A stretch of 64,000 nt of DNA. Source: an uncultured bacterium (GTDB taxonomy: Bacteria > Patescibacteriota > Minisyncoccia > UBA6257 > GWB1-50-10). A program made the translations under genes and the position numbers. The stretch lies in the NCBI GenBank assembly GCA_963713955.1, contig OY970216.1, positions 637,483 through 701,482 of the forward strand, given 5' to 3'. Within the stretch, counting starts at the first letter, position 1. The number at the start of each line of letters is the position of its first letter. The notes below the pieces were generated by a model. The model was not told the origin of the DNA and did not search any database. It saw only the letters and a list, made by a program, of their open reading frames with translations. This document shows, in pieces, positions 22,979 through 54,149 of this stretch.

Positions 22979-24244
22979 CTACTTTTGAGCATTGTACATA
23001 GCCTGGATCTCAGCCGCAGACAATGCTCGATTATAGATGCGGACGTCGTCAAAAAGGCCATCCATCATCCATCCCGAAACACTTGAAATGCTGATGTTAT
23101 CCGAAGACAAAACATTCCCCGTCACCGAAGATATATTCACAGACCCTGATTGCTTTACTCCGTTCACGTAGACATATGCGAATCCCGCGGAACGATCGAA
23201 GACGATGGCGATATGAGCCCAGGTATTCTGAAGATCTGATGGCCGATACCCAGCGTCACATGCAACAAGTCCTGTCACTAAATTGGTACCATCATTGAAG
23301 TGGATGTTTATTCCTGTTGCACTATAGCTAGAATTGTCGATTGAATATCCAGGATGACCAGATTGATAAGAGTTACTGTTACCAATTGGGAAAAAGGCTC
23401 TTGGATAAACATAACTTCGGTGATAACCCCATCCCACGATCGTCAAACTTCCGGTTTGGGGATATAGGCTTGCATTGTTTCCAACGATCACATTATCATC
23501 CGTCCCATTGAAGTTCCCAGCGTATTGTCCCACCTTGCCTTGAGTATAGTAGGAACCATTGGTTATGGAACCAGACCACGTCCCCTGATTCCCATTCCCA
23601 CTCATATCATTAGGGTTTCCATCGAGGGGCCAGTAACCAACCAATCCATTCGTATTGAATAAGGGATTCAGGGAAAGGTTTGATCCATAAGCTATGACTC
23701 CAGGAATCATAGGAACCATAGGACTTCCTTCAATCTGAGACTTGTATTTCTGTGACTCAGGGAGACCGGTAAGTTCAAAGGAACCTCCCATGGTGTAGGT
23801 ATAGTAGAGGCCCGAACTCGTGGTGTTTATGGGATCAATAGGGAGCTTTGACAAAGGAGAACCTGATGAAATGAGGGTTAGATTGACGGGAATCCAGCCT
23901 GTTCCGTCTACCTTGGTTGAGGAAGAGCTTGGAACACAGTGATAACTCCAGCCTGTGGGAGGGGTAGGGAGACCCAAGGAGCCGCAGGTCGAAGAAGCGT
24001 TGTCGGGAACTGAGAGATAGAGGGTATTTGGAGTCCCTAAAGATTGACTCCACTCATCTGCCTGGAAGAGAGATAAAGCACTGTTTAAAGCTGCCAAGTC
24101 AGACAAACGAGTGGAATCTCTTCCCTGGGCCAGAAGCTGGGCAGGATTCAGGACGAGGACGACTGCGGTTGCGAGGACAGCAAGGATTGCTATCACAACC
24201 AGGAGCTCAATCAATGTAAAAGATTCTCTACTTCGCAGATTCAT
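22979..24244 (-). CDS. Prepilin-type N-terminal cleavage/methylation domain protein with C-terminal LamG (concanavalin A-like) domain, paralog 1
   Basis: Start at MNLRSRES|FTLIELLVVIAILAVLA (type IV pilin class III signal, Glu+5); C-terminal GLFDDVRIYNRALSAAEIQAMYNAQK (Laminin_G_3-type motif). The 51 upstream codons of the track ORF read through repeat C and are rejected. Confidence 0.8.
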   Translation of the reverse strand: MNLRSRESFTLIELLVVIAILAVLATAVVLVLNPAQLLAQGRDSTRLSDLAALNSALSLFQADEWSQSLGTPNTLYLSVPDNASSTCGSLGLPTPPTGWSYHCVPSSSSTKVDGTGWIPVNLTLISSGSPLSKLPIDPINTTSSGLYYTYTMGGSFELTGLPESQKYKSQIEGSPMVPMIPGVIAYGSNLSLNPLFNTNGLVGYWPLDGNPNDMSGNGNQGTWSGSITNGSYYTQGKVGQYAGNFNGTDDNVIVGNNASLYPQTGSLTIVGWGYHRSYVYPRAFFPIGNSNSYQSGHPGYSIDNSSYSATGINIHFNDGTNLVTGLVACDAGYRPSDLQNTWAHIAIVFDRSAGFAYVYVNGVKQSGSVNISSVTGNVLSSDNISISSVSGWMMDGLFDDVRIYNRALSAAEIQAMYNAQK

Positions 24245-24297
24245 TAGTTCAATTATAGCAGGAAAACGTCCTGCCTTTTTGTTCTGGGAGGAGAGTG

Positions 24298-24394
24298 TAG
24301 TTATCCACAGATTTATGGAGAGCGGGAAGCCATAATGAGAGCGGGAGGCCATATAATTGGGGGATAACTCCGTTGCGGCTCCCGGTGCGGAGTC
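24298..24394. repeat. Intergenic repeat, family C copy 2 (with an internal 20-nt duplication), just upstream of pilin-like gene 1
   Basis: agttatccacagatttatggagagcgggaagccataatgagagcgggaggccatataattgggggataactccgttgcggctcccggtgcggagtcc. Confidence 0.65.
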
Positions 24395-24463
24395 CAAATT
24401 TCTATTCCCTATCCCTCTAACCCGTCCGAGCCTTGAGGAGAAATCGAGTTAATGCATCTCTGT

Positions 24464-25255
24464 TCATAATTTGAATAACTTCTTCGCGTTTTTCCAGAAG
24501 ATCCTCTCCTTATCTCTCCCAGGGATCTTCAGCGAATTGATGAGATCGATATGTTCCTGGAAGCCGCATATAGCGTAGTCCGTTCCGAACAAGACGCTTT
24601 CCGGGTTGTCCCTCACGGTCCGTTCCAGAACATCCCTTATCTTATTCAGGCCGATTCTCCTCACCACTTCTTCGTCAGCGAGCCCGGAAGTGTCGAAATG
24701 GATATTCCTGAAACCTCTCGTCATGTCGTAGCAGTAGTCAACTTCCGGATAGAAATAGTGGGCGATGACGATCTTGAGATCCGGAAATTGTTTCGCGACT
24801 TCGACGATATGCTTCGGGTCGTTGTACTCCGCGGCCTCCGGGTGGTTCGGGTTCGAGCCGGTATGGATCACGATAGGGCGACCGTATTTCACGCAGAGTT
24901 TGTAAACGGGCATTAATCTCTCGTCCGTCGGATAGATCGGGTCGTGTCCCGGGAATATCTTGATGCCTCTTATCTTATCCTCCCTGAAAAGCCGGTCCAG
25001 CTTACCCATCCATTCCTTCCCGTCACTCCTCACGTCTATCGTTCCCAGGAGAAAAATATTTTTCTCGCTTTCGGTCAGCCTAAGGCATATATCCAGATCC
25101 CCTATTCCCGAACCGCGTATATTGTCGGGAATCATCACCGCGGCATCGATACCGCCATCCTTCATGTCGGAAAGAAGTTTCTTCTTTGCAACCTCGAAAT
25201 CAAAGCCCGAGCCGCTCTTCACAACAGGTAAGTGAACGTGTGCGTCTATTATCAT
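24464..25255 (-). CDS. Amidohydrolase-2 family metal-dependent hydrolase (TIM barrel)
   Basis: Start at MIIDAHVHLP (classic amidohydrolase HxH); ..VIHTGS.., ..IAHY.. further metal-ligand positions. Confidence 0.75.
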   Translation of the reverse strand: MIIDAHVHLPVVKSGSGFDFEVAKKKLLSDMKDGGIDAAVMIPDNIRGSGIGDLDICLRLTESEKNIFLLGTIDVRSDGKEWMGKLDRLFREDKIRGIKIFPGHDPIYPTDERLMPVYKLCVKYGRPIVIHTGSNPNHPEAAEYNDPKHIVEVAKQFPDLKIVIAHYFYPEVDYCYDMTRGFRNIHFDTSGLADEEVVRRIGLNKIRDVLERTVRDNPESVLFGTDYAICGFQEHIDLINSLKIPGRDKERIFWKNAKKLFKL

Positions 25256-25340
25256 ATTTTCATCCGGGCTTTCGATAAAAATTTTTCCAGTTCGGTTTTT
25301 ACAGCTGGAGGAGACATTTGTTCTAACTTTACTACTCCTG

Positions 25341-25613
25341 TTACTGCACCTCATTCTGAACTTCTTCAGACCCGACCGGAGCGGCAGGCACCTGTAGCGA
25401 TGATAGTTTTGTTCGTATAGACCCTAAAAGTGTATTGGTAACCTTGGAGATGTCACCTATTTCCTCCAGCAAGTTAACTATTTTATTTATTTTCCAATAC
25501 CAACAGAAAAACTCGCGCAAAATAATGAAAAGACATATCGCTATCACTATCCATGCTATAAAAACCAACGCGTTGGAACTGCTCACCAGTTGCCCAAAAA
25601 TAAATTGATTCAT
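25341..25613 (-). CDS. Hypothetical small membrane protein (island)
   Basis: 90 aa, one TM helix, AT-rich coding. Confidence 0.4.
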   Translation of the reverse strand: MNQFIFGQLVSSSNALVFIAWIVIAICLFIILREFFCWYWKINKIVNLLEEIGDISKVTNTLLGSIRTKLSSLQVPAAPVGSEEVQNEVQ

Positions 25614-25656
25614 ATTCAGTTTTTACCCCCTAACTTCCTCGACCTTTCAAAAACTA

Positions 25657-25992
25657 CTACTTCTTGGAGAAATTTTTATAAACCTTATTTATGAAGTAAG
25701 CAATGGCACCTAAAGAAATTACCTCTACCACTAACCCGGCCACAGGATTGATGCCACTAAGGAAAATGGATATAACTAATTGAATAATAGCTATTATCAA
25801 AAGAGCAATTGTAACAAACGTTAAAACCCTACTCCACCTTGTAGTATTTCCATCAAACTTCTCGATAGAATCCTTCAATCGTCGCATCATTTCAACTTGA
25901 GCACCTTGAGACTTGAGACCACTTGTTGTACCTATAACTGTCTCACTAGCCAAGTTTACCAATTCTTCGTCTTTTTTATTTTTAAATTCCAT
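25657..25992 (-). CDS. Hypothetical small membrane protein (island)
   Basis: 111 aa, two C-terminal TM helices. Confidence 0.4.
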   Translation of the reverse strand: MEFKNKKDEELVNLASETVIGTTSGLKSQGAQVEMMRRLKDSIEKFDGNTTRWSRVLTFVTIALLIIAIIQLVISIFLSGINPVAGLVVEVISLGAIAYFINKVYKNFSKK

Positions 25993-26151
25993 AATTTATC
26001 TCAATTATTTCTACAACTTCTATTGTTCTAGCTCCAATCTAACCACATTTCAAGGAAAAGCTGGGCCCGGGTCCTGCTTCCTGCCTGGGGCAACGTCTTC
26101 GCGGCCAACAATATTACCTAAGGTAAACTATTATGTTCTCGTTCCATAGTT

Positions 26152-26772
26152 CTATTTATTCCAACCAAAAAGGTAAACGAGATAAGCAATGACTAGGCCT
26201 ATAATAACTGTAGATATGATCTTATTTTTCTTAATCCAACGCCAGGCATTACCAAAAACAAGTCTCCAATACGCACGATGCGGATTTTTAACATCCTTAA
26301 TGGTAATTCCTTCTGGCGTGAATTCTTTCCCTACCTGGACAAAAGACACTGAACCACCAGCACCACCATCGCCGCCCTTGCTACCATTGAATCCATGACC
26401 ACCGTGACCGCCAGAAGCCTCAATTTTAGGTCCGGAGCTCTTCGGCTCGAACAATGACTTGAATTCCTCTTCGCCCATACTTTCTAGTTTCCCGTGTATA
26501 TAATTCAGATCCTGTATCACAGCATCAATATCATCGAGAATTTCCACATTGTTTGAAAAGGCAGAAAGATACACATCACTATTCTTGCTTAACGCGTTAA
26601 TATACTTCTCATACTTGCCGTAGGCCTGAGTCAATCCGGCCCGATGTATCAATAATGTCCGTTCCCGTGAGTCGGAAGATAACGAATAATCGGCGTTCAC
26701 AAAGGTTCGCCGGTAATTTTCAACCTGAGAACGAAAGACTGAAACTTGTGTTTTTAAATCATTAATTGTCAT
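26152..26772 (-). CDS. Hypothetical protein with Gly-rich segment and C-terminal TM anchor (island)
   Basis: Start at MTINDLKT; SGGHGGHGFNGSKGGDGGAGGS; C-terminal IISTVIIGLVIAYLVYLFGW. Confidence 0.4.
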   Translation of the reverse strand: MTINDLKTQVSVFRSQVENYRRTFVNADYSLSSDSRERTLLIHRAGLTQAYGKYEKYINALSKNSDVYLSAFSNNVEILDDIDAVIQDLNYIHGKLESMGEEEFKSLFEPKSSGPKIEASGGHGGHGFNGSKGGDGGAGGSVSFVQVGKEFTPEGITIKDVKNPHRAYWRLVFGNAWRWIKKNKIISTVIIGLVIAYLVYLFGWNK

Positions 26773-26798
26773 TACTCTCTGGCACACCTACTCATCTG

Positions 26799-26850
26799 GC
26801 AGTTCACTAACAATCCAAGCCGGGCGATGCCCGGCTTGGAAGTGATTGAC
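26799..26850 (-). terminator. Hairpin terminator downstream of the R-M pair
   Basis: CCAAGCCGGGCAUCGCCCGGCUUGG on the minus strand followed by AUUGUUAG. Confidence 0.4.
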
Positions 26851-26967
26851 TTTCGAGTCGGGGCTCTTTCTCTCTATTCCCCGCCTGCTCTTTATTCGAT
26901 TACCTTAATTTTAACCCTCTTAAATTAGAACACAAAGAAGTTGTCCACCTTGCCTCCAGAGCTTGGA

Positions 26968-27765
26968 TCAGATGATTGTCGTCACTTTTTCGTACAACAT
27001 TGGCAAACAATCCTGCCTCATGCGGAATTTTGTCCCATGATTGTGGCCAGTGCGGGCATCGAAATCAACAAGCACATTGCCCTTTTCTAAAGCCTTCAAG
27101 AATCCTTCGAAGCTAAATTTCTGCAACATCATCACTTTTGTATATTTGTAATATTCTTTTCCACGTTCTACCTTCGATTCCGCTTGAACATAGAAAGCAT
27201 TAAGTAATTTCGTACCAGCCTTATGTTCTAGATCATCAAATCCCCAATACGGTTGCGGATCAAGTTCACCTAACCCGGTTCGTTTCTTGACTAGCTTAAG
27301 CCAATCCTTGTGTCTAGGATCAACACTTTTGGCATTAAACGAAACTAAGACCTTCTCTTCCTTACGATCTATGGTAACTTTAAAACCACGATCGCTTCGT
27401 GACTTACCATGAATAGTTTGACGAAAACTCATCTCGCCTTTCCTATACAGCTTCCCCGCTTCCTCATGGGGCCATCCGTATAGAGGAAGTAAAACCTGGG
27501 GCACGAATCTTATAGCACGGGGCGACGGTTCAGTATGAAATAGTGTGGTTAGCGAGGTGGTGTTTGTCCTCTGCGCCTTCAATTCCCACTCCGCCGCGTT
27601 CGGGATTGGTAGGTTATTCTCTTTAATACCAAGCAGATCCTCAAGTGTATTACCTACGCCGCCAGTATTACCCCTCCGTGCGTTTGGGATCCACCCCATC
27701 GCAGAAATTTTTCTCAGTTTTGCTATCAATGCTGGTTTTGTATAGATTACTGGTCTCTTCTTCAT
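26968..27765 (-). CDS. Type II restriction endonuclease, MvaI/BcnI family-like
   Basis: N-terminal LRKISAMGWIPNARRGNTGGVGNTLEDLLGIKENNLPIPNAAEWELK resembles the MvaI/BcnI catalytic N-terminus; 3 nt downstream of an N4/N6 MTase. Confidence 0.6.
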   Translation of the reverse strand: MKKRPVIYTKPALIAKLRKISAMGWIPNARRGNTGGVGNTLEDLLGIKENNLPIPNAAEWELKAQRTNTTSLTTLFHTEPSPRAIRFVPQVLLPLYGWPHEEAGKLYRKGEMSFRQTIHGKSRSDRGFKVTIDRKEEKVLVSFNAKSVDPRHKDWLKLVKKRTGLGELDPQPYWGFDDLEHKAGTKLLNAFYVQAESKVERGKEYYKYTKVMMLQKFSFEGFLKALEKGNVLVDFDARTGHNHGTKFRMRQDCLPMLYEKVTTII

Positions 27766-27767
27766 AG

Positions 27768-28577
27768 TTATAAGAGCTTTGACTGGTGTTTATACTCTTT
27801 AATTCTCTTTTCTGCCATCTCACAATATTCTGGTGAGACATCTATTCCTATATAGTTTCGCTTATTGTTCATCGCAGCAATTGCTGTAGTACCAGAACCC
27901 ATAAATGGATCCAAGATCATCTTGGCATTCGTCGCGGAAACAATCCGGTCAATTAAATTAACCGGAAAGGCAGCGGGATGTTCATTATTCATTTCTTGAG
28001 TAAATTCCCAAACATCGCCACGAGCATTAGCTTTTGGCGAAAGTTTGAACTTAGGCTTGGCAATCAGATAGATTACCTCGTAAGTTGGAAGGAAATAACC
28101 CGGGTTGAAATTCAATCCCCCTTTTCGCTTCCAGATAATAATCTGGCGAATTGGAAAACCACTGACGATATCCTGACGATCTTGCAGTAAACCACCCTGC
28201 ACGCGCCACTTGTGGTTGTAAAAAATTGCACCATCATCTGGTATAACTCGCATCATCTCTGTCAGGCAATCTCTTTGCCACTTAACATATTCTTCGTGTG
28301 GCATACAGTCATCATGGTTCGCATACCCTTTTTGAAGTGCGGCATTGGCCCATTTGCCACCTCGACCATCTTTCATTCCATTGCCAGTAGAATTCTTCAA
28401 GTTATAGGGCGGCGAAGTGACCACCAGATCAACCGCCCCATCCGGTATCTGTCTCATTACATCAACTGCATCACCACAAATGATCTTGTTTATAAAATCT
28501 TTGGGAAATCTAATGTCTTTTGAGATTTGTTTATTCGGAGTAATAGTTCCTCTTTTTAATACTGTTGATGGTTTCAT
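27768..28577 (-). CDS. DNA methyltransferase, beta-class N4-cytosine/N6-adenine (SPPY motif)
   Basis: DLVVTSPPYNL (motif IV) and LDPFMGSGTTAIAA (FxGxG SAM-binding motif I) in circularly permuted beta order, as in M.MvaI/M.BcnI-type m4C MTases. Confidence 0.85.
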   Translation of the reverse strand: MKPSTVLKRGTITPNKQISKDIRFPKDFINKIICGDAVDVMRQIPDGAVDLVVTSPPYNLKNSTGNGMKDGRGGKWANAALQKGYANHDDCMPHEEYVKWQRDCLTEMMRVIPDDGAIFYNHKWRVQGGLLQDRQDIVSGFPIRQIIIWKRKGGLNFNPGYFLPTYEVIYLIAKPKFKLSPKANARGDVWEFTQEMNNEHPAAFPVNLIDRIVSATNAKMILDPFMGSGTTAIAAMNNKRNYIGIDVSPEYCEMAEKRIKEYKHQSKLL

Positions 28578-28722
28578 GATGGGAAGGATATAAGCTAATA
28601 TTACCCCATTTTTCTGTATTTTTCATCATCGAATATTATACGCAGCCGTGTTTAGTCATTTATTTAGATCCTTCCTTTTTCCCTTTTCTCCAACCACCAT
28701 TTCTTGAAAAACGGCATAAAAA

Positions 28723-29082
28723 TCAGAGCTCCGTATACTTTCTATGGCTCCCCCACGCTTTCTTGACGGGGTATTTTTTCTCGTTCTTCTCCATCTTCTT
28801 CTCCAAAGCTTTCTTAATGTCTATATCCAAATCGTGGCTCATAAGGAGCACCCAGTAGAGCACATCGGCCAGTTCTTCACCTATGTGCTCCTTGTGGGTT
28901 TTGATGTATTTTTTAATTTCCTCGCCATTCTTCCACTGGAAGTGCTCCAAGACTTCAGCGGCTTCCAAGGAAAGAGAAATGGCCACATCCTTCGGATTGT
29001 GAAACTGCTTCCAATTCCTGGCGTTCCTGAACTTTAAAATCCTGTTGGTTAGCGCTTTTATGTCGGACATGGTATCCCTCAA
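28723..29082 (-). CDS. MazG-like nucleotide pyrophosphohydrolase (all-alpha NTP-PPase)
   Basis: LSLEAAEVLEHFQW..EELADVLYWVLLMSHDL EExxE/D motifs. Confidence 0.7.
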   Translation of the reverse strand: MRDTMSDIKALTNRILKFRNARNWKQFHNPKDVAISLSLEAAEVLEHFQWKNGEEIKKYIKTHKEHIGEELADVLYWVLLMSHDLDIDIKKALEKKMEKNEKKYPVKKAWGSHRKYTEL

Positions 29083-29188
29083 ATTCTACCCCTTCCGCCT
29101 CTCCATAATCCGCCAGCCGGCGGATGTGGATAACCATCCCCCACCCCGCCGAAAAGCAGAAAGGCGCCATCTGAGTTAGAATATACCT

Positions 29189-29884
29189 ATGGACCTCAAT
29201 GGCAAAATCGTTGTTATTACAGGTGGCAGCAAAGGTTTAGGTAGATCTCTGGCTGAACTTTTGTCAAAAGAAGGTGCGAAACTGGCTATCTGTTCTCCCG
29301 AGGAGGAGGAAATTCTTGCGGTTGCGAAGGAGATTGGTTGCTTGGGAATACGAGCCGATGTACGCCGCGAAGAAGAAGTTAAAAAACTTGCTGAACTTAC
29401 GGAGCGGGAATTTGGAAGAATTGACATATGGATAAACAATGCCGGCATCCGGATTCCGAGAGTTCCACTCGAGGATACAGACATGAAAAGAGTGCACGAG
29501 ATGGTGGAAGTGAATCTTTTCGGGACAATGTACGGTTCCAAGGCGGCGATGATCCAAATGAAAAAACGAAAAGAAGGTACAATCGTAAACATACTTTCGA
29601 CAAGTGCACTTGAGGGAGCGAAATATTCCACCGGATACGGAGCCAGCAAGGGCGGAGCCATAGCTTTTACGAAATCGCTCAGAGTAGAACTTTCACCCTT
29701 TGGAATAAGTGTCATCGGTGTTTATCCCAAGGGAATGAGAACGGAGTTTTTCCGCGAGAATAAGCCAGCTGATTATGAAAAATACATGGACCCAAGAGAA
29801 GTAGCACGGCAAATCGTGAACAATCTCAAGAAAAACAAACCGGAAGAAGAATTCTTCATCAAAACTGATCCGTCTGCTCCTTAA
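29189..29884 (+). CDS. Short-chain dehydrogenase/reductase (SDR) family oxidoreductase
   Basis: ITGGSKGLG (TGxxxGxG), NNAG, YGASKGG (YxxxK). Confidence 0.85.
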   Translation: MDLNGKIVVITGGSKGLGRSLAELLSKEGAKLAICSPEEEEILAVAKEIGCLGIRADVRREEEVKKLAELTEREFGRIDIWINNAGIRIPRVPLEDTDMKRVHEMVEVNLFGTMYGSKAAMIQMKKRKEGTIVNILSTSALEGAKYSTGYGASKGGAIAFTKSLRVELSPFGISVIGVYPKGMRTEFFRENKPADYEKYMDPREVARQIVNNLKKNKPEEEFFIKTDPSAP

Positions 29885-29937
29885 GTTCTCCTCCCACAAA
29901 CAAAAAAGCATGGCGTTTTCCTGCTATAATTGAACTA

Positions 29938-31157
29938 ATGAACTTTCGTTTCAGAGAATCTTTTACCTTAATTGAGCTTCTTGTAGTCATAGCCATCCTT
30001 GCCGTCTTAGCAACCGCCGTCATCCTAATCCTGAATCCTGCCCAGCTCTTAGCCCAAGGAAGAGACTCCACCAGACTCTCTGATCTTGCAGCTCTGAATA
30101 GTGCTCTCTCCCTCTTCCAGGCTGATCAATGGAGTCAATCCATGGGATTAGCTTCCACCACCTATATCTCAGTCCCTGATCATCATCCACCTGTGGTAAT
30201 CTAGGCCTCCCTGCCTTACCTTCAGGCTATTCCTATCACTGTGTCCCCAGTGCTTCCTCCACGAGAATAGATGGTACCGGCTGGATTCCCGTCAATCTAA
30301 CCCTCATATCATCAGGATCTCCTCTTTCGAAGCTCCCCCTAGACCCCCTGAACACTACCTCGAGTGGAGAATACTATACCTATACGCCAGGAGGATCCTT
30401 TGAACTCACGGCCATACCCGAGTCCCAGAAGTACCGCGCTCAGTATCAAACCATTCCTCCCCTTCAGAACATTCCTGGAGTTATAGCCTATGGATCGAAT
30501 CTTTCCCTCTCTCCCCTCTTCAATACCCAAGGGTTAGTGGGGTATTGGCCGCTGGATGGAAACTCTAATGATATGTCTGGGAATGGGAATAATGGGAGTT
30601 TAACGGCGGGGGTAGGATGGGGAAACGGTAAAATTGGTTCAGCGTTGAGTTTAAATGGTAGTGGTAATGATTACGCTCGGGTTTCTCGTGTGGTGGCCAA
30701 TGATTTTTCAATTTGTTTATATGTTAAGGCATTGAGTGATTCTACGTCGGGATCGCAATGGTACCATGGACAGGGACTTTTTGATTCAGAGGTTAGTGGT
30801 GTCGTGAACGACTACGGCGTAGCATATCTTAATAACAAGGCTGCGTTTGGTACGGGGAACCCCGACACAACTATCCAGAGCACCCAATTCATAAACGATG
30901 GAATATGGCATCAAGTATGTGCTACCAGGATACAAAGTAGCGGAAGCATTTTTTTGTACGTAGACAGCAATTTACAGGCGAGTACAACTGAGGCGAATAC
31001 CGCATCTCTCACGGCACCGACATATTCTTATATGGGCAGCTCAAATGGAGGTGTCGGAAATCACGGGATCATTAATGGCCTCATCGACGACGTTCGCGTC
31101 TACAACAGGGCTTTGTCAGCAGCAGAGATTGCGGCTATATACAACGCCCAGAAATAA
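29938..31157 (+). pseudogene. Prepilin::LamG paralog 2, disrupted by a frameshift (4-nt deficit relative to paralog 3 near 30170-30200)
   Basis: Frame A 29938..30204 (MNFRFRES|FTLIELLVVIAILAVLA...SVPDHHPPVVI*); frame B continues ..SSSTCGNLGLPALPSGYSYHCVPSASSTRIDGTGWIPVNLT.. through 30537..31157 (..GLIDDVRVYNRALSAAEIAAIYNAQK). Confidence 0.6.
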
Positions 31158-31165
31158 ATACTCAA

Positions 31166-31196
31166 CCTCCCGCTCTCCATAAATCTGTGGATAACT
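31166..31196. repeat. Family C repeat, 5' module in inverted orientation, between paralogs 2 and 3
   Basis: cctcccgctctccataaatctgtggataact is the reverse complement of agttatccacagatttatggagagcgggagg. Confidence 0.6.
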
Positions 31197-31251
31197 ATCT
31201 CCTCCTTTCAAAAACAAAAAGCCAGGACATTTTCCTGCTATAATTAAACAA

Positions 31252-32478
31252 ATGAACTTTCGTTCCCGAAGCAGCTTCACTTTGATCGAGCTCCTTGTCG
31301 TGATCGCGATCCTGGCTGTCCTAGCCACAGCAGTCGTCCTAGTCTTAAACCCCTCCCAGCTCCTTGCTCAGGGAAGGGATTCCACCCGTCTCTCAGACCT
31401 GGCAGCTCTGAATAGCGCTTTATCCTTGTTCCAGGCTGATGCCTATACCCAGTCATTGGGGACTCCCAATACCCTCTACATCTCAGTCCCTGACAATGCC
31501 TCCTCCACCTGTGGATCCCTGGGTCTTCCCACCCCTCCCACAGGCTATTCCTATCACTGTGTCCCCAGTGCTTCCTCCACGAGAATAGATGGTACCGGCT
31601 GGATTCCCGTCAATCTAACCCTCATATCATCAGGATCTCCTCTTTCGAAGCTCCCTATTGATCCCATAAACACTACCTCATCTGGTCTCTACTACACCTA
31701 TGTCTCAGGAGGATCATATGAATTGACCGGTCTACCTGAATCACAGAAGTACAAGGCACAGATTGAAGGCAACCCAATGATTCCCATGATTCCCGGAGTC
31801 ATAGCCTATGGTTCCAACCTTACCTTATCTCCCTTGTTCAGTACCCAGGGGTTAGTGGGCTATTGGCCTCTCGATGAAGGGTCCGGCTCAACAGCCAATG
31901 ATATGAGTGGGAATGGGAATAATGGGACGTGGAATGGAAGTGGAACGCATTATGCTCAGGGTAAGGTTGGGGGGTTCGCTGGGCAATTCAATGGGACAAG
32001 CACACAAGATTACACTAGCGCTCCTTATAACACTTCACTCAATGTAACGAGTCTTACTATAACCGCCTGGGTCAAAAACTCGGCAACGGGAGAGAGGGTT
32101 GTCGCCTCAAAATTTGGTTCATCACCTTATCAAGGTTATTGGTTTGGCGAAGACAGTGGTGGTGGATTGCGGGTTTGCTTAGGTACAGGTGGTCAGACAT
32201 GTATTAATAAGGGACTTTTTCCTACCGATAATACCTGGCATTTTATTTCTTTTACTTATGACAATACGACCGGTACTTGGAATTTCTATATTGATGCTTC
32301 TACAACTGGTTCATCTACGGCAGTTACCGCTATAGCACCGGTTAATACGGATTTTCGGATCGGAGTCGGCCAGTGGAGTTCAAGCGACTATTTTCAGGGA
32401 CTAATCGACGATGTTCGTATCTACAACCGAGCGTTGTCCGCAGCGGAGATAGCTGCTATCTATAACGCACAGAAGTAA
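31252..32478 (+). CDS. Prepilin::LamG paralog 3
   Basis: MNFRSRSS|FTLIELLVVIAILAVLA..; C-terminal GLIDDVRIYNRALSAAEIAAIYNAQK. Confidence 0.8.
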   Translation: MNFRSRSSFTLIELLVVIAILAVLATAVVLVLNPSQLLAQGRDSTRLSDLAALNSALSLFQADAYTQSLGTPNTLYISVPDNASSTCGSLGLPTPPTGYSYHCVPSASSTRIDGTGWIPVNLTLISSGSPLSKLPIDPINTTSSGLYYTYVSGGSYELTGLPESQKYKAQIEGNPMIPMIPGVIAYGSNLTLSPLFSTQGLVGYWPLDEGSGSTANDMSGNGNNGTWNGSGTHYAQGKVGGFAGQFNGTSTQDYTSAPYNTSLNVTSLTITAWVKNSATGERVVASKFGSSPYQGYWFGEDSGGGLRVCLGTGGQTCINKGLFPTDNTWHFISFTYDNTTGTWNFYIDASTTGSSTAVTAIAPVNTDFRIGVGQWSSSDYFQGLIDDVRIYNRALSAAEIAAIYNAQK

Positions 32479-42583: not shown

Positions 42584-42745
42584 GGCGGGAATAAATTCCT
42601 GCCATTTTTGTTTTCTGTCCATAAGAGGTAGATCTCTCTCCTCGAAGAAATCTCTCGCAGCGAGGTTATAGCTTCGCAAGCGAAGACGACCCTGAGATCG
42701 TCCGGGGATAAATTCGCGCCGATTTTTTCCTTGACCTCCCCCATT

Positions 42746-42779
42746 CCAAGTTAAAAAAGCCATGGCTTTTTTAACTTGG
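42746..42779. terminator. Bidirectional rho-independent terminator between convergent dnaE and a hypothetical gene
   Basis: Perfect 34-nt palindrome ccaagttaaaaaagccatggcttttttaacttgg with A/U runs on both strands. Confidence 0.6.
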
Positions 42780-42856
42780 AAAACAAAAGGACTCCTTCAA
42801 CAATTGTCGAAGGAGTCAAAGATACGAAAATATGAGGATTTCGAGGAGCCGAGATT

Positions 42857-45235: not shown

Positions 45236-46149
45236 GGAGGAAGAAACTCCTGGTGATCGTGGGGCCGACGGCTTCGGGCAAAAGCGCCTTGGCCATCAAA
45301 CTTGCTGAAAAGCTCAACGGCGAGATTGTATCTGCCGATTCGAGGCAAATATACAAAGGACTGGAGATAGGGTCGAATCACCCCTCAAAACGGGAATTAA
45401 AAGCCGTCCCCCATCACCTGATAGGTCTCATGGACCCGAAGAAAACTTTCACGGTTGCGGAATACCAAAAAAAAGCTCGAAAGATAATCGCCGACATCTG
45501 GAAACGCGGGAAGCTTCCGATACTTTGCGGCGGAACGGGGTTCTACATACAATCCGTTGTCAACGGGACCGTCATGCCGGAAGTGCCACCTCAAGAAACA
45601 TTGCGAAAGGAGCTCGAGAGGAAAACGACCGAGGAGCTGGCAGAAATCCTGAAAGAGAAAGATGCGACAAGATGGAAAACAATCGACCGCAAGAACAAAA
45701 GACGACTCATACGGGCGATCGAGATAGCGGCGGTACTCGGCAAAGTCCCGAAAATAAAAACGGATCCCCTGAAAGCCGAGGTGCTCGCGATCGGACTGAA
45801 TCCGGACAAAAAAATTCTCGAAGCGTCGATAAAGAAAAGATCGCGGGTGATGATGGAACGCGGTTTCATTAATGAAACCAAGACACTCCTCAAAAATGGA
45901 GTCAAAGAAGAAAAAATAGGAGAGCTTGGCTTCGAATATCAAAATGCCCTCAAATATATCCGCGGAGAAATCAAATCCAAAAGGGAGCTTGCCGACATCA
46001 TCTCGCAAGCGACCATGAAGTACGCGAAGCGGCAGATGACGTGGTTCAAAAGAGACAAGAAAATCCGCTGGTTCAAGAATGAGGAGGAAGCGGTGAAAGC
46101 GCTTCAATTGATCGAAGCGGTGAAATTCCAAGATTCAAATTCCAAATAA
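45232..46149 (+). CDS. miaA: tRNA dimethylallyltransferase
   Basis: VGPTASGKSALAI P-loop and DSRQIYKGLEIGS; overlaps the thrS stop (ATGA). Confidence 0.85.
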   Translation: MRRKKLLVIVGPTASGKSALAIKLAEKLNGEIVSADSRQIYKGLEIGSNHPSKRELKAVPHHLIGLMDPKKTFTVAEYQKKARKIIADIWKRGKLPILCGGTGFYIQSVVNGTVMPEVPPQETLRKELERKTTEELAEILKEKDATRWKTIDRKNKRRLIRAIEIAAVLGKVPKIKTDPLKAEVLAIGLNPDKKILEASIKKRSRVMMERGFINETKTLLKNGVKEEKIGELGFEYQNALKYIRGEIKSKRELADIISQATMKYAKRQMTWFKRDKKIRWFKNEEEAVKALQLIEAVKFQDSNSK

Positions 46150-46227
46150 CAAATAAATGCTCAAATTCGAAATTCGGAAATTGAATATTGTTTGAAATTT
46201 GGTGCTTGGGATTTAGTGCTTTACCTT

Positions 46228-47436
46228 CTATTTCTGCGCGTTATAGATAGCTTGAATCTCCGCTGCCGATAATGCTCGGTTATAGATGCGGACATCGTCA
46301 ATTAAACCGCTGAATTTAGAAAGAGTGCCCATATTAGGTGGACAGGGATAGTTATTTCCTCCTCCTATAATGGTACAACTGCCCCCGCCATTTACATTGA
46401 CCCCTGAAACTCCATTGCCGTTTTGAACGGCCAAACCGTCGATGTAGAGGTAGTAATTATCGCCTTGCCTAGTACCTACAATAAAGTGCCATTGGCTATC
46501 TGAAAAAACTGTTGTAGATAGTGTATGGTAAATCCCATCCGTACCACGAAGCGTATAGGCACCGTTATTCAACACAAACTCGGGTGTCCAGGAATAATTA
46601 CTCAATATTATATTCGAAGAACCAACACCAGATTTGAACCAACTGGATAGAGTTAAACTCCCCATGCCGAGGTTATCCATCCAAGTTCCGATGTTTATAT
46701 AGTCATCCGTCCCATTGAAGTTCCCAGCCTGGTTGATCTTCCCTCCTGTATAATAGGAACCATTGGTCATGGAACCATACCAGGTACCACTATTGTTGTT
46801 TCCACTCCTGTCCCCCGGGTCTCCATCGAGGGGCCACCATCCTACTAATCCCTCACTCCTTCCAATAAGGGAAAGGTCAGAACCGATCTCATACTTCCCA
46901 GGATCATAGCCTTGGTCCTGGGATGCAGTAGAACTGAGGTATTTCTGTGATTCCAAGGCACTGGATAAGGCATAGGAGCCTCCTGATACGTAGGTATAGT
47001 AGAGTCCAGTGCTTGTGGTATTCGTAGGGTCTATCGGGAGCTTGGATAAAGGGGATCCTGATGATAGGAGGGTAAGATTCACGGGAATCCAGCCTGTTCC
47101 GTCTACTCTTGTTGAGGAAGAGCTTGGAACACAGTGATAGGCCCATCCTATAGGAGGAGAAGACAGTCCCAGATTGGCACAGGTGGATGTGGTATCGGGG
47201 ACTGATACGTAGAGGGTATTCGGAGTCCCTAAGGACTGGGTATATTGATCTGCTTGGAAGAGGGATAAGGCACTATTCAGGGCTGAAAGATCAGAGAGCC
47301 TGGTTGAATCTCTTCCTTGAGCTAAGAGCTGGGCGGGATTCAAGACCAAGACGACGGCGGTTGCAAGGACGGCTAAGATCGCGATGACTACTAATAACTC
47401 AATGAGGGTGAAAGATTCTCTACCTCTGAGATTCAT
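46228..47436 (-). CDS. Prepilin::LamG paralog 4
   Basis: MNLRGRES|FTLIELLVVIAILAVLA..; C-terminal GLIDDVRIYNRALSAAEIQAIYNAQK; divergent LamG core. Confidence 0.8.
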   Translation of the reverse strand: MNLRGRESFTLIELLVVIAILAVLATAVVLVLNPAQLLAQGRDSTRLSDLSALNSALSLFQADQYTQSLGTPNTLYVSVPDTTSTCANLGLSSPPIGWAYHCVPSSSSTRVDGTGWIPVNLTLLSSGSPLSKLPIDPTNTTSTGLYYTYVSGGSYALSSALESQKYLSSTASQDQGYDPGKYEIGSDLSLIGRSEGLVGWWPLDGDPGDRSGNNNSGTWYGSMTNGSYYTGGKINQAGNFNGTDDYINIGTWMDNLGMGSLTLSSWFKSGVGSSNIILSNYSWTPEFVLNNGAYTLRGTDGIYHTLSTTVFSDSQWHFIVGTRQGDNYYLYIDGLAVQNGNGVSGVNVNGGGSCTIIGGGNNYPCPPNMGTLSKFSGLIDDVRIYNRALSAAEIQAIYNAQK

Positions 47437-49054: not shown

Positions 49055-49078
49055 TATAACAGAAAACCCCGGGTTTTC
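49052..49078 (-). terminator. Hairpin + U-run downstream of eno
   Basis: GAAAACCCGGGGUUUUC + UGUUAUAAUG on the minus strand. Confidence 0.5.
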
Positions 49079-50397: not shown

Positions 50398-51401
50398 CCT
50401 TTCACCACGTTCGTCGGCGCTCCCGCGACGAACGATTTAATGTTTCCAATGGTCGTTGCCAAAATCCTTTGCAAGGCCTCCTTGGTATTGAACGCGTTGT
50501 GGGGGGTGATGAGAACGTTCGGGTGCTTCATGAGAACGTGGTTTTCGAGGACGGTTTTCAAATTAGCTTCCTTGGCCGCCGGATTGCTCAAAAACTCGAG
50601 TTCGTCTTTCGTTTCGCCTTCTTCCTCCAAGACATCCAAGCCGACCCCTGCGAAAATTCCTCCTTTCAATCCAAGGACGATCGCATCGGTGTCGACGATC
50701 CCTCCCCGGGCGGTATTCACGAGGTATACTCCCTTTTTGAAAAGAGTCACGTTTTTCTTGTTGATCAGGTGTTCCGTTTGCGGCGTCAAAGGGCAATGGA
50801 TGGTAACCGCATCGGCGCTTCTCAGGAGCTCTTCGAGCGACACGTACTTGACGCCGAACGCTTGCGCGAAATTGTAATCCGGGTACGGATCATAGGCATA
50901 GATCACCATGCCGAAACCACGGGCGATCCGGATCGCCTCCTTGCCAATCCGGCCCGTCCCCACGACGCCCATGATTTTCCCCTTGAGATCTATCCCCTCC
51001 AAACCCGCGAGCGAGAACGATTCTGTTTCTTTTATTTGGTCGATCGCGCGGTAGATTTTCCTCGTGAGGTTCAAGAGGAGGCCAAATGCGTACTCGGCGA
51101 CGGTGTTGTCGCCGTACCCCGGCACGTACGAGACCACGATGTTCTTCGATTTGCAGAACTCGAGATCGATGTGATCGAATCCCGTCGAACGCGTCGTCAG
51201 GAGCTTCAAATTCGGGAAATTTCCCAGGAGCTCACCGTCAATCTTCGAGCCAATGAACGTGGAGATAACGTCAAAATCTTTCTCCATCGGCAGATTCTCG
51301 ACGGCAAGCTTATCTTTTGACAGATACATTTCATCCCCGGGGAAAGATTGCTTTATCGTTTCGTCTTCCCATCCTTCGAGGTCAAAAAAAGCTATCCGCA
51401 T
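50394..51401 (-). CDS. D-isomer-specific 2-hydroxyacid dehydrogenase (NAD-dependent)
   Basis: GVVGTGRIGKEAIRIARGFGMVIYAYD Rossmann motif; 4-nt overlap with eno. Confidence 0.8.
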   Translation of the reverse strand: MRIAFFDLEGWEDETIKQSFPGDEMYLSKDKLAVENLPMEKDFDVISTFIGSKIDGELLGNFPNLKLLTTRSTGFDHIDLEFCKSKNIVVSYVPGYGDNTVAEYAFGLLLNLTRKIYRAIDQIKETESFSLAGLEGIDLKGKIMGVVGTGRIGKEAIRIARGFGMVIYAYDPYPDYNFAQAFGVKYVSLEELLRSADAVTIHCPLTPQTEHLINKKNVTLFKKGVYLVNTARGGIVDTDAIVLGLKGGIFAGVGLDVLEEEGETKDELEFLSNPAAKEANLKTVLENHVLMKHPNVLITPHNAFNTKEALQRILATTIGNIKSFVAGAPTNVVKG

Positions 51402-51458
51402 ATAGTCTCATTATAGCATACGTTGAAACAATCTCGCGCCAGACTATAATGAAAGAGA

Positions 51459-52184
51459 ATGATGAATTCCTATAGATCAAAACTCATCAAGAAGGAAGAG
51501 ATTGCGAAGGGTACCATGGCTTTCCACTTCGAAAAGCCGGACGGCTTCTCTTTCGTGCCCGGCCAGTACGCGGATCTTACCATGGTGAATCCGAAGGAAA
51601 CGGATGAGGAGGGCAACATCAGAACCTTCACGATCGCGAGCGCCCCCCTCGAAAAAGATCTCATCTTCGCGACCCGGATGCGCGACACGGCCTTCAAGCG
51701 CGAGCTTGGCAAAATGCCGGAAGGAGCGGAAATCGAGATTGATGGGCCATTCGGCTCCTTTACGCTCCATACCAAAAGAGAGAAACCCGCCGCCTTCATC
51801 GCCGGCGGCATCGGCATCACACCGTTCTTGAGCATTCTGAAAACCGCGGCCGAAGAAAAACCCGACCGGAAATTCTATTTGTTTTATTCCAACCGGACCG
51901 AGGATGATGCTCCATTCCTCCGCGACCTTTCCAGCCTGACAAAAGGAACTCCCGGTTTCACGTTCGTGCCAACGATGTCCAACCTCCCGCCGGGAGAAAA
52001 CGGGTGGAAGGGGGAAACCGGTTACATCAACGGCGACATGATAAAGAAACATCTTCCCACGATCGACGGCCCGATATACTACCTCGCAGGGCCTCCGCAA
52101 ATGGTCGCTGCCATGAGGAAAATGCTTTCCGAGATGGGAGTATCCGAGGATGACATTCGCTTCGAGGAATTTTCAGGCTACTAG
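51459..52184 (+). CDS. Stand-alone ferredoxin-NADP reductase-like FAD/NAD(P)-binding oxidoreductase
   Basis: RTFTIASAP (RxY[ST]-type) and FIAGGIGITPF; paralogous to the C-terminal domain of 955..2475. Confidence 0.75.
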   Translation: MMNSYRSKLIKKEEIAKGTMAFHFEKPDGFSFVPGQYADLTMVNPKETDEEGNIRTFTIASAPLEKDLIFATRMRDTAFKRELGKMPEGAEIEIDGPFGSFTLHTKREKPAAFIAGGIGITPFLSILKTAAEEKPDRKFYLFYSNRTEDDAPFLRDLSSLTKGTPGFTFVPTMSNLPPGENGWKGETGYINGDMIKKHLPTIDGPIYYLAGPPQMVAAMRKMLSEMGVSEDDIRFEEFSGY

Positions 52185-52202
52185 CCCCATATCCTTACCG
52201 CA

Positions 52203-52868
52203 ATGACTACCGAGCAATTAAAAACAAGAAAGGCTAGAGCCAAGAAAATCGTCGCTGCTCTCAACAAGCTTTTTCCGAAAGCCGGCATCGCCCTCAAATA
52301 CAGAAACAACTGGGAGCTTCTGGTCGCCGTCGTCCTTTCAGCCCAATGCACGGACAAGAAAGTCAATGAAGTGACGGAAGAACTCTTTAAAAAGTATAAG
52401 AAATTGGACGATTATGTGAACGCGAAGCAGGCCGAATTTGAAAAAGACATCCGCCCAACCGGTTTCTACCGGAATAAAGCGAAGAACATCCTCGCGGCGG
52501 CGAAGATGGTGAAGGAAAAATTCCACGGTAAAATTCCCCGCACGATGGAAGAGATATTGACAATCCCCGGCGTCGCGCGGAAAACCGCGAATGTCGTCCT
52601 CGGGAACGCATACGGCATTGTGGAAGGCATTGCTGTCGACACGCACGTCAGGCGTCTCGCGATGAAACTCGGACTCACGAATCACGACAATCCGGTGAAA
52701 ATCGAGCGTGACCTCATGGAAATATTTCCGAAGAAAGACTGGTTCACGGTGACTTACAAACTCATCGAATACGGCAGGCACGTCTGCTCCGCTCGGCCGC
52801 ACGACTGCGCGAATCATCCGCTCACGAAAATCTACCCTCCGGCTGCGAACATTTGGCCAAAACACTAG
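52203..52868 (+). CDS. nth: Endonuclease III-like DNA glycosylase (HhH-GPD); FeS-cluster cysteines not conserved
   Basis: LLVAVVLSAQCTD, HhH PGVARKTANVVL, catalytic D (AVDTHV). C-terminus CSARPHDCANHPL has 2 Cys instead of Cx6Cx2Cx5C. Confidence 0.75.
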   Translation: MTTEQLKTRKARAKKIVAALNKLFPKAGIALKYRNNWELLVAVVLSAQCTDKKVNEVTEELFKKYKKLDDYVNAKQAEFEKDIRPTGFYRNKAKNILAAAKMVKEKFHGKIPRTMEEILTIPGVARKTANVVLGNAYGIVEGIAVDTHVRRLAMKLGLTNHDNPVKIERDLMEIFPKKDWFTVTYKLIEYGRHVCSARPHDCANHPLTKIYPPAANIWPKH

Positions 52869-52870
52869 GG

Positions 52871-52957
52871 CTTGCCATCCACCCCTCGCTCAGGCTGTCT
52901 CCGGGGCGACGCCCAAGTCTTAGCCTTCGCAAGGGATGGATGGCTCGCTTTTTTCGG
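52871..52957. repeat. Nested-palindrome repeat family B copy 1, acting as a terminator between convergent nth and pilin-like gene 5
   Basis: gccatccacccctcgc..cctcgctcaggctgtctccggggcgacgcccaagtcttagccttcgc..gcaagggatggatggc + ttttttcgg; the core recurs inverted at 55848-55894. Confidence 0.6.
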
Positions 52958-52961
52958 AAGG

Positions 52962-54149
52962 TTACTTTTCTGCGTTGTACATCGCTTGAATCTCGGCTGC
53001 GGAAAGTGGACGGTTGTAGATACGAACATCATCGATCAAGCCGTTGAAATAACCGTTACCGGCACCAATGACTGGATTTCCAGAAATCGAGGTTATGCTC
53101 CCGGGAACGTATGTCTTGGAACTCACCATAACGCCGTTTATGTAAAGCTTTGTCACTCCCGAGATGGCATCGCCGGTACCCGCCGCATAATACCATGTAC
53201 CATAAGAGGGAATTACATAACGCGGAGTTGCATCCTCTCTAGTACTATTCACGTTAATCTCTCCGACTATTTGTCCGTTGCCATCTATCCAGACACCATT
53301 CATGTATCCCCAACCTACAACTTGCGTACTTATCTGGCTGTTTGGCCTAACCCATGCCGAAAAAGAAACTTGGTTCGAGGTGGTGATGAGCGAATTCAGG
53401 GCAGCACTCAAATTCACGGAAGCGTTGCTACTCGTCCCGTTGAAACTTAAGCACCCTCCAACCTTACAGCCTGAAGTCCACATGGGGCTGTTCACTAATG
53501 TCCCATTATTCCCATTCCCACTCATATCACTCGCATTCCCATCCAGCGGCCAGTACCCCACGAGCCCACTTGCATTGAATAAGGGAGAAAGATTGAGGTT
53601 GGAACCATAGGCAATGACTCCAGGAATCATCTGGATCATAGGATTTGTCTCAATCTGGGCTTTGTACTTCTGTGACTCAGGGATAGCGGTAAGCTCAAAG
53701 GAGCCTCCTGGCGTATAGGTATAGTAGAGTCCTGAGGACGTAGTATTCACGGGATCAATCGGGAGCTTGGATAATGGGGATCCTGATGAAATGAGGGTGA
53801 GATTGACGGGAATCCAGCCAGAACCATCTGTTCTTGTGGAAGAAGCAGCTGGAACACAGGCATAGGAGTAACCTCCTGGAAGGGCAGGGAGCCCCAGGTT
53901 GCCACAGGTACTTGAGGAGTCAGGGATAGAGACATAGGTAGTGGAGGCATTTCCTAAGGGTTGGTTCCATTGATCGGTCTGGAAGAGGGATAAGGCACTA
54001 TTCAGAGCTGAGAGATCAGAGAGTCTCGTGGAATCCCTTCCTTGAGCGAGAAGCTGGGAAGGGTTCAAGACCAAGACGACGGCGGTTGCGAGGACCGCAA
54101 GGATCGCAATCACGACCAGGAGCTCGATCAGGGTGAAGGATTCCCTCAT
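52962..54149 (-). CDS. Prepilin::LamG paralog 5
   Basis: MRES|FTLIELLVVIAILAVLA..; C-terminal GLIDDVRIYNRPLSAAEIQAMYNAEK. Confidence 0.8.
   Translation of the reverse strand: MRESFTLIELLVVIAILAVLATAVVLVLNPSQLLAQGRDSTRLSDLSALNSALSLFQTDQWNQPLGNASTTYVSIPDSSSTCGNLGLPALPGGYSYACVPAASSTRTDGSGWIPVNLTLISSGSPLSKLPIDPVNTTSSGLYYTYTPGGSFELTAIPESQKYKAQIETNPMIQMIPGVIAYGSNLNLSPLFNASGLVGYWPLDGNASDMSGNGNNGTLVNSPMWTSGCKVGGCLSFNGTSSNASVNLSAALNSLITTSNQVSFSAWVRPNSQISTQVVGWGYMNGVWIDGNGQIVGEINVNSTREDATPRYVIPSYGTWYYAAGTGDAISGVTKLYINGVMVSSKTYVPGSITSISGNPVIGAGNGYFNGLIDDVRIYNRPLSAAEIQAMYNAEK

Follow-up and report, generated by a model that had tools for sequence, protein, structure and literature searches.

Five genes of one type lie in the stretch of DNA analysed here, 64,000 nucleotides from an uncultured bacterium of the Patescibacteriota (referred to as the window), and each of them joins a prepilin to a LamG domain. 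They raise the question of whether such a family is a system that moves variable binding domains between copies or a set of different adhesins that are kept side by side. An earlier note, made from the sequence alone, had favoured the former. In our analysis the family is probably a repertoire of lectin-bearing modular type IV pilins in which the pilin module evolves in concert, and no cassette-switching system. Gene conversion homogenises the anchoring module, and the data in hand show no diversification of the binding module by this route.

A tblastn search with the intact copies as queries found exactly five prepilin::LamG_3 loci in the window, the same five that had been listed before. The first copy (c1, 22979..24244, minus strand) is intact and encodes 421 amino acids from the ATG at 24244. 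Its start was set by homology to the paralogs and by a TGCTATAAT box 8-9 nt upstream; the mechanical open reading frame (ORF) extends to a TTG at 24397. The second copy (c2, 29938..31157, plus strand) is of the same gene type and carries a single 1-nt deletion at about 30180/30181, and restoring one base yields an otherwise open frame of 406 amino acids. This frameshift, which had already been noticed, is also present in contig_20183 of the European Nucleotide Archive (ENA), a second assembly. The remaining copies are intact, namely c3 (31252..32478, plus strand, 408 amino acids), c4 (46228..47436, minus strand, 402 amino acids) and c5 (52962..54149, minus strand, 395 amino acids). The four intact copies of the window and five sequenced copies from elsewhere in the genome are all full length and have their own start codon and signal peptide.

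The domain searches confirmed that the proteins are fusions of a class III (prepilin) signal with LamG and form one paralog family. Pfam N_methyl was found at 25.9-29.7 bits (cut-off 21.2) in c1, c3, c4 and c5, the second ORF of c2 being without it, and Laminin_G_3 (PF13385) at 63-98 bits (cut-off 27.6) in all five window copies. Among 94 family members F9, T10, L11 and E13 are invariant, and so are the features for filament assembly, that is F+1, E+5 and a long alpha-1 helix. The earlier note had called for a structure prediction of the LamG core. An AlphaFold2 model of c3, built on the 94-sequence alignment, reached a predicted local distance difference test score (pLDDT) of 90.8 and a predicted template modelling score (pTM) of 0.81 and gave a LamG-type beta-sandwich. 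The model comprises a helix of 53 residues (11-63), a small globular domain with strands and the beta-sandwich at 201-408 (strands 201 to 391). Together with Pfam it divides the c3 gene, on the plus strand, into leader and alpha-1 helix (31252-31440), globular pilin module (31441-31851) and LamG beta-sandwich (31852-32475). In a Foldseek search against the PDB the best matches of the c3 sandwich were LamG-type modules that bind carbohydrates, namely domain 4 of AbnA (5hon), the tetanus and botulinum Hc-N domains and the lectin domain of trans-sialidase, with E values of 1e-12 to 1e-9 (5hon_A: E 3e-12, target TM-score 0.77). Similarly, a profile search of PDB sequences linked the N-terminus to geopilin, PilA and GspG and the C-terminus to LamG domains.

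The N-terminal half also occurs without LamG. Stand-alone pilins of about 190-240 amino acids that are homologous to it, often in tandem arrays, were found in other genomes of the Candidate Phyla Radiation (CPR), and the N-half is therefore a complete pilin module onto which the LamG head is fused. In sample SRR12217123 (L133:1-492) a relative of the paralog P0022 is preceded by a LamG-less pilin homologous to the N-half (…SSGSPLSKLPVDPNN…), so that fused and unfused forms of the pilin module can adjoin. A pilin module and an extra domain that is not pilus-specific were thus found in one polypeptide, which is the design of a modular pilin. The protein would consist of a short class III signal peptide, a hydrophobic alpha-1 helix with a globular pilin module (about 190 amino acids) and a directly fused LamG_3/ConA-like sandwich (about 200 amino acids). 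The pilin module would insert it into a type IV filament, and the sandwich would be displayed as a binding head, probably a glycan-binding one. Binding of a carbohydrate or another ligand by this head is probable in view of its structural neighbours and of the function of PilC, a modular pilin of Streptococcus sanguinis that is compared below. From homology and from the characterised modular pilins we infer that a prepilin peptidase processes the proteins, that they become part of the pilus tip and that they bind glycans or a host. The paralogs would then represent a standing repertoire of different heads on one common stalk.

The window holds five of at least 17 paralogs that are scattered over a single genome of about 0.8 Mb. 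All four intact window proteins are encoded on one 804,691-bp Patescibacteria contig that carries at least 12 further paralogs; the tally of at least 17 is made up of 12 found on this contig among the top homolog matches, four found by cluster look-up and the pseudogene c2. Damaged members among the 17 are c2 with its frameshift and P0003 with a truncated C-terminus. Comparisons of DNA cover ten of the 17, the five window copies and five loci recovered from the second assembly; according to the cluster look-up the latter are the same genes as on the 804,691-bp contig and differ from them by at most two residues or in the called start. Beyond this genome we found at least 2,896 homologs at E<1e-5, the named ones of which are annotated as prepilin-type proteins of Patescibacteria, Paceibacteria or Wolfebacteria, and relatives are present in metagenome-assembled genomes of Paceibacterota, Parcubacteria and Minisyncoccia. 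Orthologous syntenic loci were sought in other genomes to date the duplications, and no shared flanks were found.

Conserved segments on both sides of a variable core had been taken as the hallmark of diversification by recombination. In this family that reading is not supported, since the 3' segment is a generic LamG_3 motif and the conversion tracts described below lie only in the pilin half. Synonymous divergence (pS) in the pilin half of the five window copies is 0.43-0.76, near saturation, and the ratio of non-synonymous to synonymous divergence (dN/dS) is 0.03-0.4. With synonymous sites near saturation and little non-synonymous change, the flanks are conserved at the level of the protein. 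The 5' halves of the window copies are not near-identical, as had been claimed, but share 55-92% of their DNA (in 60-nt windows) and 69-90% of their protein. Truly near-identical pilin halves, with 95-98% identity, characterise a subfamily formed by c4, P0011, P0013, P0023 and P0121. The C-terminus, likewise described as identical, is nearly so in protein only, with F for I in c1, V for I in c2 and both P for A and E for Q in c5; the DNA of this motif is 72-84% identical among the window copies with a pS of 0.75-1.05. The terminal motif G-x-I-D-D-x-R-I-Y/F-x-R-A-L-S-x-x-E-I is also present in the unrelated LamG_3 structures 4qvs and 5hon, and hundreds of matches in viral contigs lacking any pilin part start from it. 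Judged from these occurrences, it is best described as a signature of the LamG_3 fold (the terminal strand and helix) and not as a recombination flank. The consensus of the 94 family members from many genomes has the same profile: the pilin half and both ends of LamG are conserved, and the core varies. Purifying selection thus acts on the pilin module and on the LamG framework, including the C-terminal motif G-x-I-D-D-V-R-I-Y-N-R-A-L-S-A-A-E-I.

The two halves of the proteins differ strongly in their history. In a 17x17 protein matrix the pilin halves are on average 78.7% identical (range 66-98), and the LamG halves 40.4% (range 27-57). The LamG cores had been called unrelated. They are all homologous LamG_3 domains that align throughout with conserved framework positions, their LamG halves being 27-57% identical. 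The pilin half shares 79-98% identity with its best paralog in the same genome versus 62-78% with the best sampled protein of another genome, with one exception at 89%. The LamG half, by comparison, is 35-48% identical within the genome versus 36-60% between genomes, and the closest relative of the P0014 core was found in another organism (P0009, 60%), as against 41% in its own genome. As pilin halves are closer to each other within the genome and LamG halves are not, the pilin modules have been homogenised within the genome and the heads are old lineages. Moreover, no two of the 17 paralogs share a LamG core, the maximum of 57% over the LamG half being mostly framework, which means that non-reciprocal copying of cores has left no trace. 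Across the 17 paralogs at the protein level and ten at the DNA level, the LamG cores are anciently diverged, saturated and not exchanged between the present-day copies. A search for closer relatives of the c4 LamG half returned none above 41% besides c4 itself; because it also missed the paralogs of the same genome, it was not used as evidence of uniqueness.

Recombination between the copies, which the earlier note had proposed, did take place, and all significant tracts lie in the pilin half. A segment of 115 nt in c2 (30223..30337, plus strand) is 100% identical to c3 (31541..31655, plus strand). It lies within the globular pilin domain of these two tandem neighbours; identity falls to 64% and 69% in the 114-nt windows on either side, and all other pairs of copies differ at 16-41 sites in the segment. 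A Sawyer-type permutation of polymorphic sites gave p<2e-4 for it. It had been reported that c2 and c3 share several completely identical stretches of more than 100 nt, of which this one exists and further ones do not. Another tract was found in c4 (46807..47385, minus strand), where codons 18-210, 579 nt with sharp ends, match P0017/P0121 elsewhere in the genome at 569 of 578 nt (98.4%). The pS between c4 and P0017 is 0.04-0.18 inside this tract versus 0.82 in the LamG core and 0.59 in the 3' motif, and ten synonymous mismatches fall within the 30 nt directly 5' of it. In a three-way comparison c4 groups with P0005 in three segments, the leader, the beginning of LamG and the 3' flank; between them it groups with P0017, by about 170 informative sites to 3. 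This switch from P0005 to P0017 and back identifies the c4 tract as an internal patch and not as a replacement of the 3' part.

Among the ten paralogs compared at the DNA level the site-permutation test detected six Bonferroni-significant events, all in the pilin half: c2-c3, c4/P0017 with P0008, c4/P0017 with P0005, c5-P0005, c4-P0012 and c5-P0008. They correspond to eight pair comparisons, as c4 and P0017 share two of the events, and the tracts span about 50-620 nt. Repeated intragenomic gene conversion is thus restricted to the pilin half and results in its concerted evolution. It would probably serve to keep the modules compatible with one assembly machine and one major pilin. One could also assume that recombination played no part: after recent lineage-specific duplications, positive selection would have changed the LamG core very rapidly, and purifying selection would simply have held the pilin half. 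The family-wide pattern of a conserved N-terminal and a variable C-terminal part would agree with this, as would the near saturation of synonymous sites in both halves of most window pairs. We nevertheless consider it very unlikely, because synonymous divergence shifts abruptly within genes (in c4/P0017 as well as in c2/c3, where 1 difference in 114 nt stands beside flanks of 64-69% identity), segments of c4 have different closest relatives, and the run tests are significant.

Several observations weigh against a pilin repertoire that evolves in concert; they concern the pilus itself, the direction of exchange between copies and the reliability of the tracts. With regard to the pilus, the signal is atypical, as the predicted cleavage site is preceded by Ser in the copies of this genome and not by the canonical Gly (residue -1 is G, A or S elsewhere in the family), and the very short leader of c5 has only 4 residues (M-R-E-S / FTLIE). 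Domain scans of the window and of five further loci of the genome found neither type IV pilus machinery nor a prepilin peptidase, so that the argument for incorporation into a filament is drawn from homology. These features, together with the dispersal of the genes among housekeeping genes and the fact that no pilus machinery adjoins any of the ten loci examined, would suit proteins that are not pilus subunits. In that case the class III signal and the helix would only export and anchor a lectin at the membrane or surface, in a pseudopilin-like or 'bindosome'-type manner, and the N-half would be a stalk. We regard this as unlikely, since the N-half is homologous to the stand-alone pilins of 190-240 amino acids in tandem arrays of related genomes and F+1, E+5 and the long alpha-1 helix do not vary across the 94 members. 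In addition, characterised lectin-headed modular pilins are assembled into pili (PMC9934059), and concerted evolution of the pilin module is expected if the module must fit partner subunits.

The direction of exchange is touched by two pairs. The 3' flank of c4 (46094..46227, minus strand), a hairpin-rich, terminator-like sequence, is about 85% identical over some 130 nt to the 3' flank of P0005 (L086:7072-7206), yet the LamG cores of the two genes are saturated (pS 0.82). If this flank is neutral DNA, one core was replaced after the duplication, which would favour the movement of cassettes; if it is a selected terminator, it is uninformative. Furthermore, P0022 and P0058, the latter from another sample, share about 91% of their protein up to the junction (…SGNGNQGT) and about 30% beyond it, with 83% identity in the DNA of the pilin half and no shared flanks. 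The drop at the junction indicates that the modules are uncoupled between genomes too, although the direction of exchange is not readable from such a pair. The junction following D-x-S-G-N-G-N-x-G-T is in fact a recurrent breakpoint, as it was found within the genome (c4/P0017) and between genomes (P0022/P0058).

One can ask whether LamG cores are moved between loci by way of the conserved 5' half and the 3' motif, as in adhesin variation of the type known from Neisseria pilE/pilS or Helicobacter babA/babB. The conserved segments do bracket a variable core, the junction recurs as a breakpoint, and c4 and P0005 combine similar 3' flanks with unrelated cores. The flank of c4 and P0005 and the uncoupling of P0022 and P0058 are the reason why we leave a modest probability on the cassette idea, which we judge improbable on the whole. 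Non-reciprocal copying of cassettes would leave common cores, and the opposite is seen in the 17 paralogs. All significant tracts fall in the pilin half, and the tract in c4 is an internal patch. The 3' motif is not only generic to LamG_3 domains but also saturated, with a longest exact match between window copies of 20 nt, which makes it poorly suited to homologous recombination. Every copy is a complete gene that has a signal peptide of its own and, except in c4, a -10 box, and no silent, 5'-truncated donors exist in the window. No G-quadruplex (G4) motif was found near any window copy, the only G4-like motif of the window lying far from them at 15733-15756. Similarly, no homopolymer of at least 7-8 nt and no repeat of at least 5 units, as would be expected for phase variation, was detected in or upstream of the five copies.

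As for the reliability of the tracts, the permutation test assumes exchangeable sites, and the tract maps for P0011, P0013, P0023, P0007 and P0016 were derived from protein identity. Moreover, the c4-type tract reads differently at 2 residues in two assemblies (P0017 vs P0121), and in the window rpoC is split into two overlapping ORFs (59545-61125 and 61101-63248; 715 + 526 amino acids). The split is either real or due to a frameshift error, and in the latter case the single-base frameshift of c2 calls for the same caution. Both findings could speak for an artefact in which the paralogs or their identical tracts arose from repeat collapse or mis-polishing. This we hold to be highly improbable. 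Over the 3,310 nt in which c2 and c3 lie, ENA contig_20183 does not differ from the window (100% identity), and flanks and core are unique to each copy. A contig assembled from short reads (Logan, L087) matches the LamG half of c4 and the flank with miaA at 99.96% and ends some 50 nt inside the repeated tract; such a break is the expected effect of a true repeat on a k-mer assembly.

Diversity-generating retroelements (DGRs) are common in CPR genomes and target ligand-binding domains, and the LamG region might hence be mutagenised by a reverse transcriptase from a template repeat. In agreement with the earlier note, however, the scanned ORFs of the window contained no reverse transcriptase domain. 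The divergence covers the whole core and is not adenine-specific, and a self-comparison of the window revealed no pair of template and variable repeats touching the LamG core. We therefore attach hardly any probability to a DGR.

The regulatory surroundings of the genes were inspected as well. An extended -10 box resembling TGnTATAAT and ending 8-9 nt before the ATG was found in nine of the ten sequenced paralogs, c4 being without a clear box. By direct inspection the boxes of the window lie at 24245-24262, 29920-29937, 31234-31251 and 54150-54170, and those of loci L082-L086 at the same position. As the boxes lack a -35 hexamer, they were missed by a consensus promoter scan, and the promoter reading relies on direct inspection. 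Judged by the sequence, each paralog appears to be transcribed on its own, and the position of the box, which leaves no space for a Shine-Dalgarno sequence, suggests leaderless or nearly leaderless mRNAs.

An element of about 100 nt lies upstream of c1, c2 and c3. Its hairpin (GCAGGAcgtttTCCTGC) abuts the -10 box, and its opposite strand reads as a terminator. The element of c1 (24245..24340, minus strand) is 85-89% identical among the three copies, with exact matches of 30 nt and 29 nt, and contains the hairpin at 24258-24274 and the TGCTATAAT box that ends 8-9 nt before the ATG; the element of c3 (31160..31251, plus strand) is the same, with its hairpin at 31223-31237 and the TGCTATAAT box. 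A solo copy without a pilin gene is located at 21335..21404 and has 96% identity over 52 nt to 24337-24388 and a 31-nt exact inverted match to 31166-31196.

Downstream, the c4 3' flank overlaps the last 55 nt of the convergent miaA ORF, so that the tail of miaA is encoded by a repeated element. P0022, P0008 and P0012 share a different downstream hairpin motif (GTATCAAGTA…TACTTGATAC). Moreover, two kinds of short (about 50-70 nt), strongly folding intergenic repeats with 85-100% identity are dispersed in the genome. In the window they occupy 52887-52955 and 55825-55892 (inverted) as well as 8354-8442 and 54929-54975, and at other loci L082:1916-1982 and 4676-4734, L084:10565-10644 and 15868-15933 and L086:7375-7447. 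The copy just downstream of c5 reaches -55 kcal/mol within a 110-nt window. These repeats look like repetitive extragenic palindromic (REP) sequences or terminators and match no Rfam family; an Rfam scan of the window found one tRNA and no other family.

Two further paralogs deserve mention for their position or their start. P0005 (L086:5695-7071, true start near 5836) is situated between rpsJ (S10) and rplC (L3) within an otherwise canonical S10 operon. Such a placement is unusual for an adhesin-type gene and may provide strong constitutive transcription. In P0008/P0122 (L084:8001-8120) and the otherwise different P0011 the real signal peptide is preceded by a common in-frame scar at the 5' end, M..SFTLIELLVVTPIRKAFHAF[IV]RGKSPS…. 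The scar resembles what an unequal recombination between paralogs would leave behind, copied at a later time, and the GTG inside it could be the true start.

The neighbours of the five copies in the window are housekeeping genes, namely dnaE, thrS, miaA, metK, a DEAD-box helicase gene, the enolase gene, nusB, nusG, rpoB/C and tRNA-Thr, and an MvaI/BcnI restriction-modification pair is also present. Between c1 and c2, at about 24000-30000, the G+C content is 0.43-0.45 versus about 0.52 elsewhere. This stretch, which carries the MvaI/BcnI-type restriction endonuclease, an N4/N6 methylase, a MazG-like protein and several ORFs without a family, may have been acquired as an island. The idea that the pilin family came from phages or is shuttled by them is not supported, as viral contigs contained only generic LamG proteins with about 30% identity and no pilin::LamG fusion. 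Elsewhere in the window, an ORF of 809 amino acids (4372-6801) combines the domains of glucose-6-phosphate dehydrogenase and 6-phosphogluconate dehydrogenase, an unusual fusion of the oxidative pentose-phosphate pathway, and a perfect 38-nt palindrome lies just downstream of dnaE (42744-42781). At 13179-14216 an ORF for a GIY-YIG nuclease is directly upstream of, and in frame with, a release-factor homolog lacking the N-terminal half of the PCRF domain. A release-factor gene with an in-frame stop was considered at this site and rejected in favour of two separate genes, the nuclease and the truncated homolog.

What is known of host recognition and attachment in the CPR comes largely from a few cultured Saccharibacteria, in which lectin-like minor pilins are the current lead. 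The lectin-headed pilin repertoire provides concrete, testable candidates for determinants of host range in a Paceibacteria-type genome. It is also a clean natural example of module-specific concerted evolution, in which one half of the gene is homogenised and the other is free to diverge. Since short-read assemblies break at the near-identical 5' halves, counts of such families from metagenome-assembled genomes are probably too low. More speculatively, and we put this forward as a tentative idea that may well prove wrong, about 2.5% of the 0.8-Mb genome of an ultra-small episymbiont might be given to at least 17 independently promoted lectin-headed pilins. Their stalk would be kept uniform by conversion so that any head fits one pilus, the expressed heads would set the range of hosts or surfaces, and occasional tracts crossing the junction would create new chimeras of stalk and head within and between populations. 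If true, the family would parallel, in a bacterium, the variant adhesin families known from eukaryotic parasites, and it would help to predict which hosts uncultured Paceibacteria have.

Known systems share single features with the family. In Neisseria one pilE expression locus is served by promoterless, 5'-truncated silent pilS cassettes; the variable 3' part moves, and a G4 upstream of pilE is required. Multi-copy type IV pilin genes and non-reciprocal transfer between copies are common to both systems. In the present family, however, the copies are complete, the 5' part moves, no G4 is found near the window copies, and the only defective copy of the window is the frameshifted c2. The Hop/Bab proteins of Helicobacter pylori are outer-membrane beta-barrels, and conversion between their paralogs makes functional chimeras that swap the binding region. 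Dispersed adhesin paralogs with conserved ends, divergent middles and gene conversion are found here as well, whereas the proteins of our study are pilins and no binding region was seen to be swapped.

The architecture itself has been catalogued. Raynaud et al. listed N_methyl (IPR012902) with PF13385 among the commonest modular-pilin architectures, with many CPR members among the representative proteins (2021, PMC8179133). These proteins have the same two domains as the present family; that study is a domain census and does not deal with multi-copy families per genome, a conserved pilin module of about 190 amino acids or concerted evolution of the pilin half. In our literature searches no paper describing a pilin::LamG paralog family or its gene conversion in Patescibacteria was found. 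The architecture is known and the family widespread, and gene conversion confined to one module, in at least 17 dispersed genes of one family, is apparently undescribed.

A parallel is offered by S. sanguinis, whose PilB and PilC follow the same modular design. Shahin et al. reported that PilC (PDB 7OA7/7OA8) binds glycans and modelled it at the pilus tip together with PilA and PilB (2023, PMC9934059). The pilin moiety of PilC carries a ConA-like lectin module, although no PilC chain was listed at E<=0.01 in our profile search of PDB sequences. Unlike the present genes, PilC is encoded by a single-copy gene in the pil locus and has an unusually short pilin moiety and an Ig-like linker module, whereas here the pilin module is full-sized and directly fused and numerous genes are dispersed over the genome. 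The saccharibacterium Nanosynbacter lyticus TM7x, too, has lectin-like minor pilins, of which PilX2 is needed for efficient host binding (PMC11623550). In contrast to our family, PilX1 and PilX2 have no LamG_3 Pfam match, occur as one such pilin per pilus locus with non-canonical signal peptides, and do not form a paralog family; nor has gene conversion been reported for them. Finally, the Kil Tad pilus of Myxococcus xanthus uses interchangeable minor-pilin Tips with variable domains, and the need for each Tip depends on the prey (PMC12075869). It differs from the present system in being a Tad/Flp pilus with four multi-protein complexes, without LamG fusion and without reported concerted evolution. 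We propose these Tips as a functional model for a repertoire of heads on one type of pilus. The family described here is in all likelihood neither a switching system like pilE/pilS nor a DGR target nor an assembly artefact.

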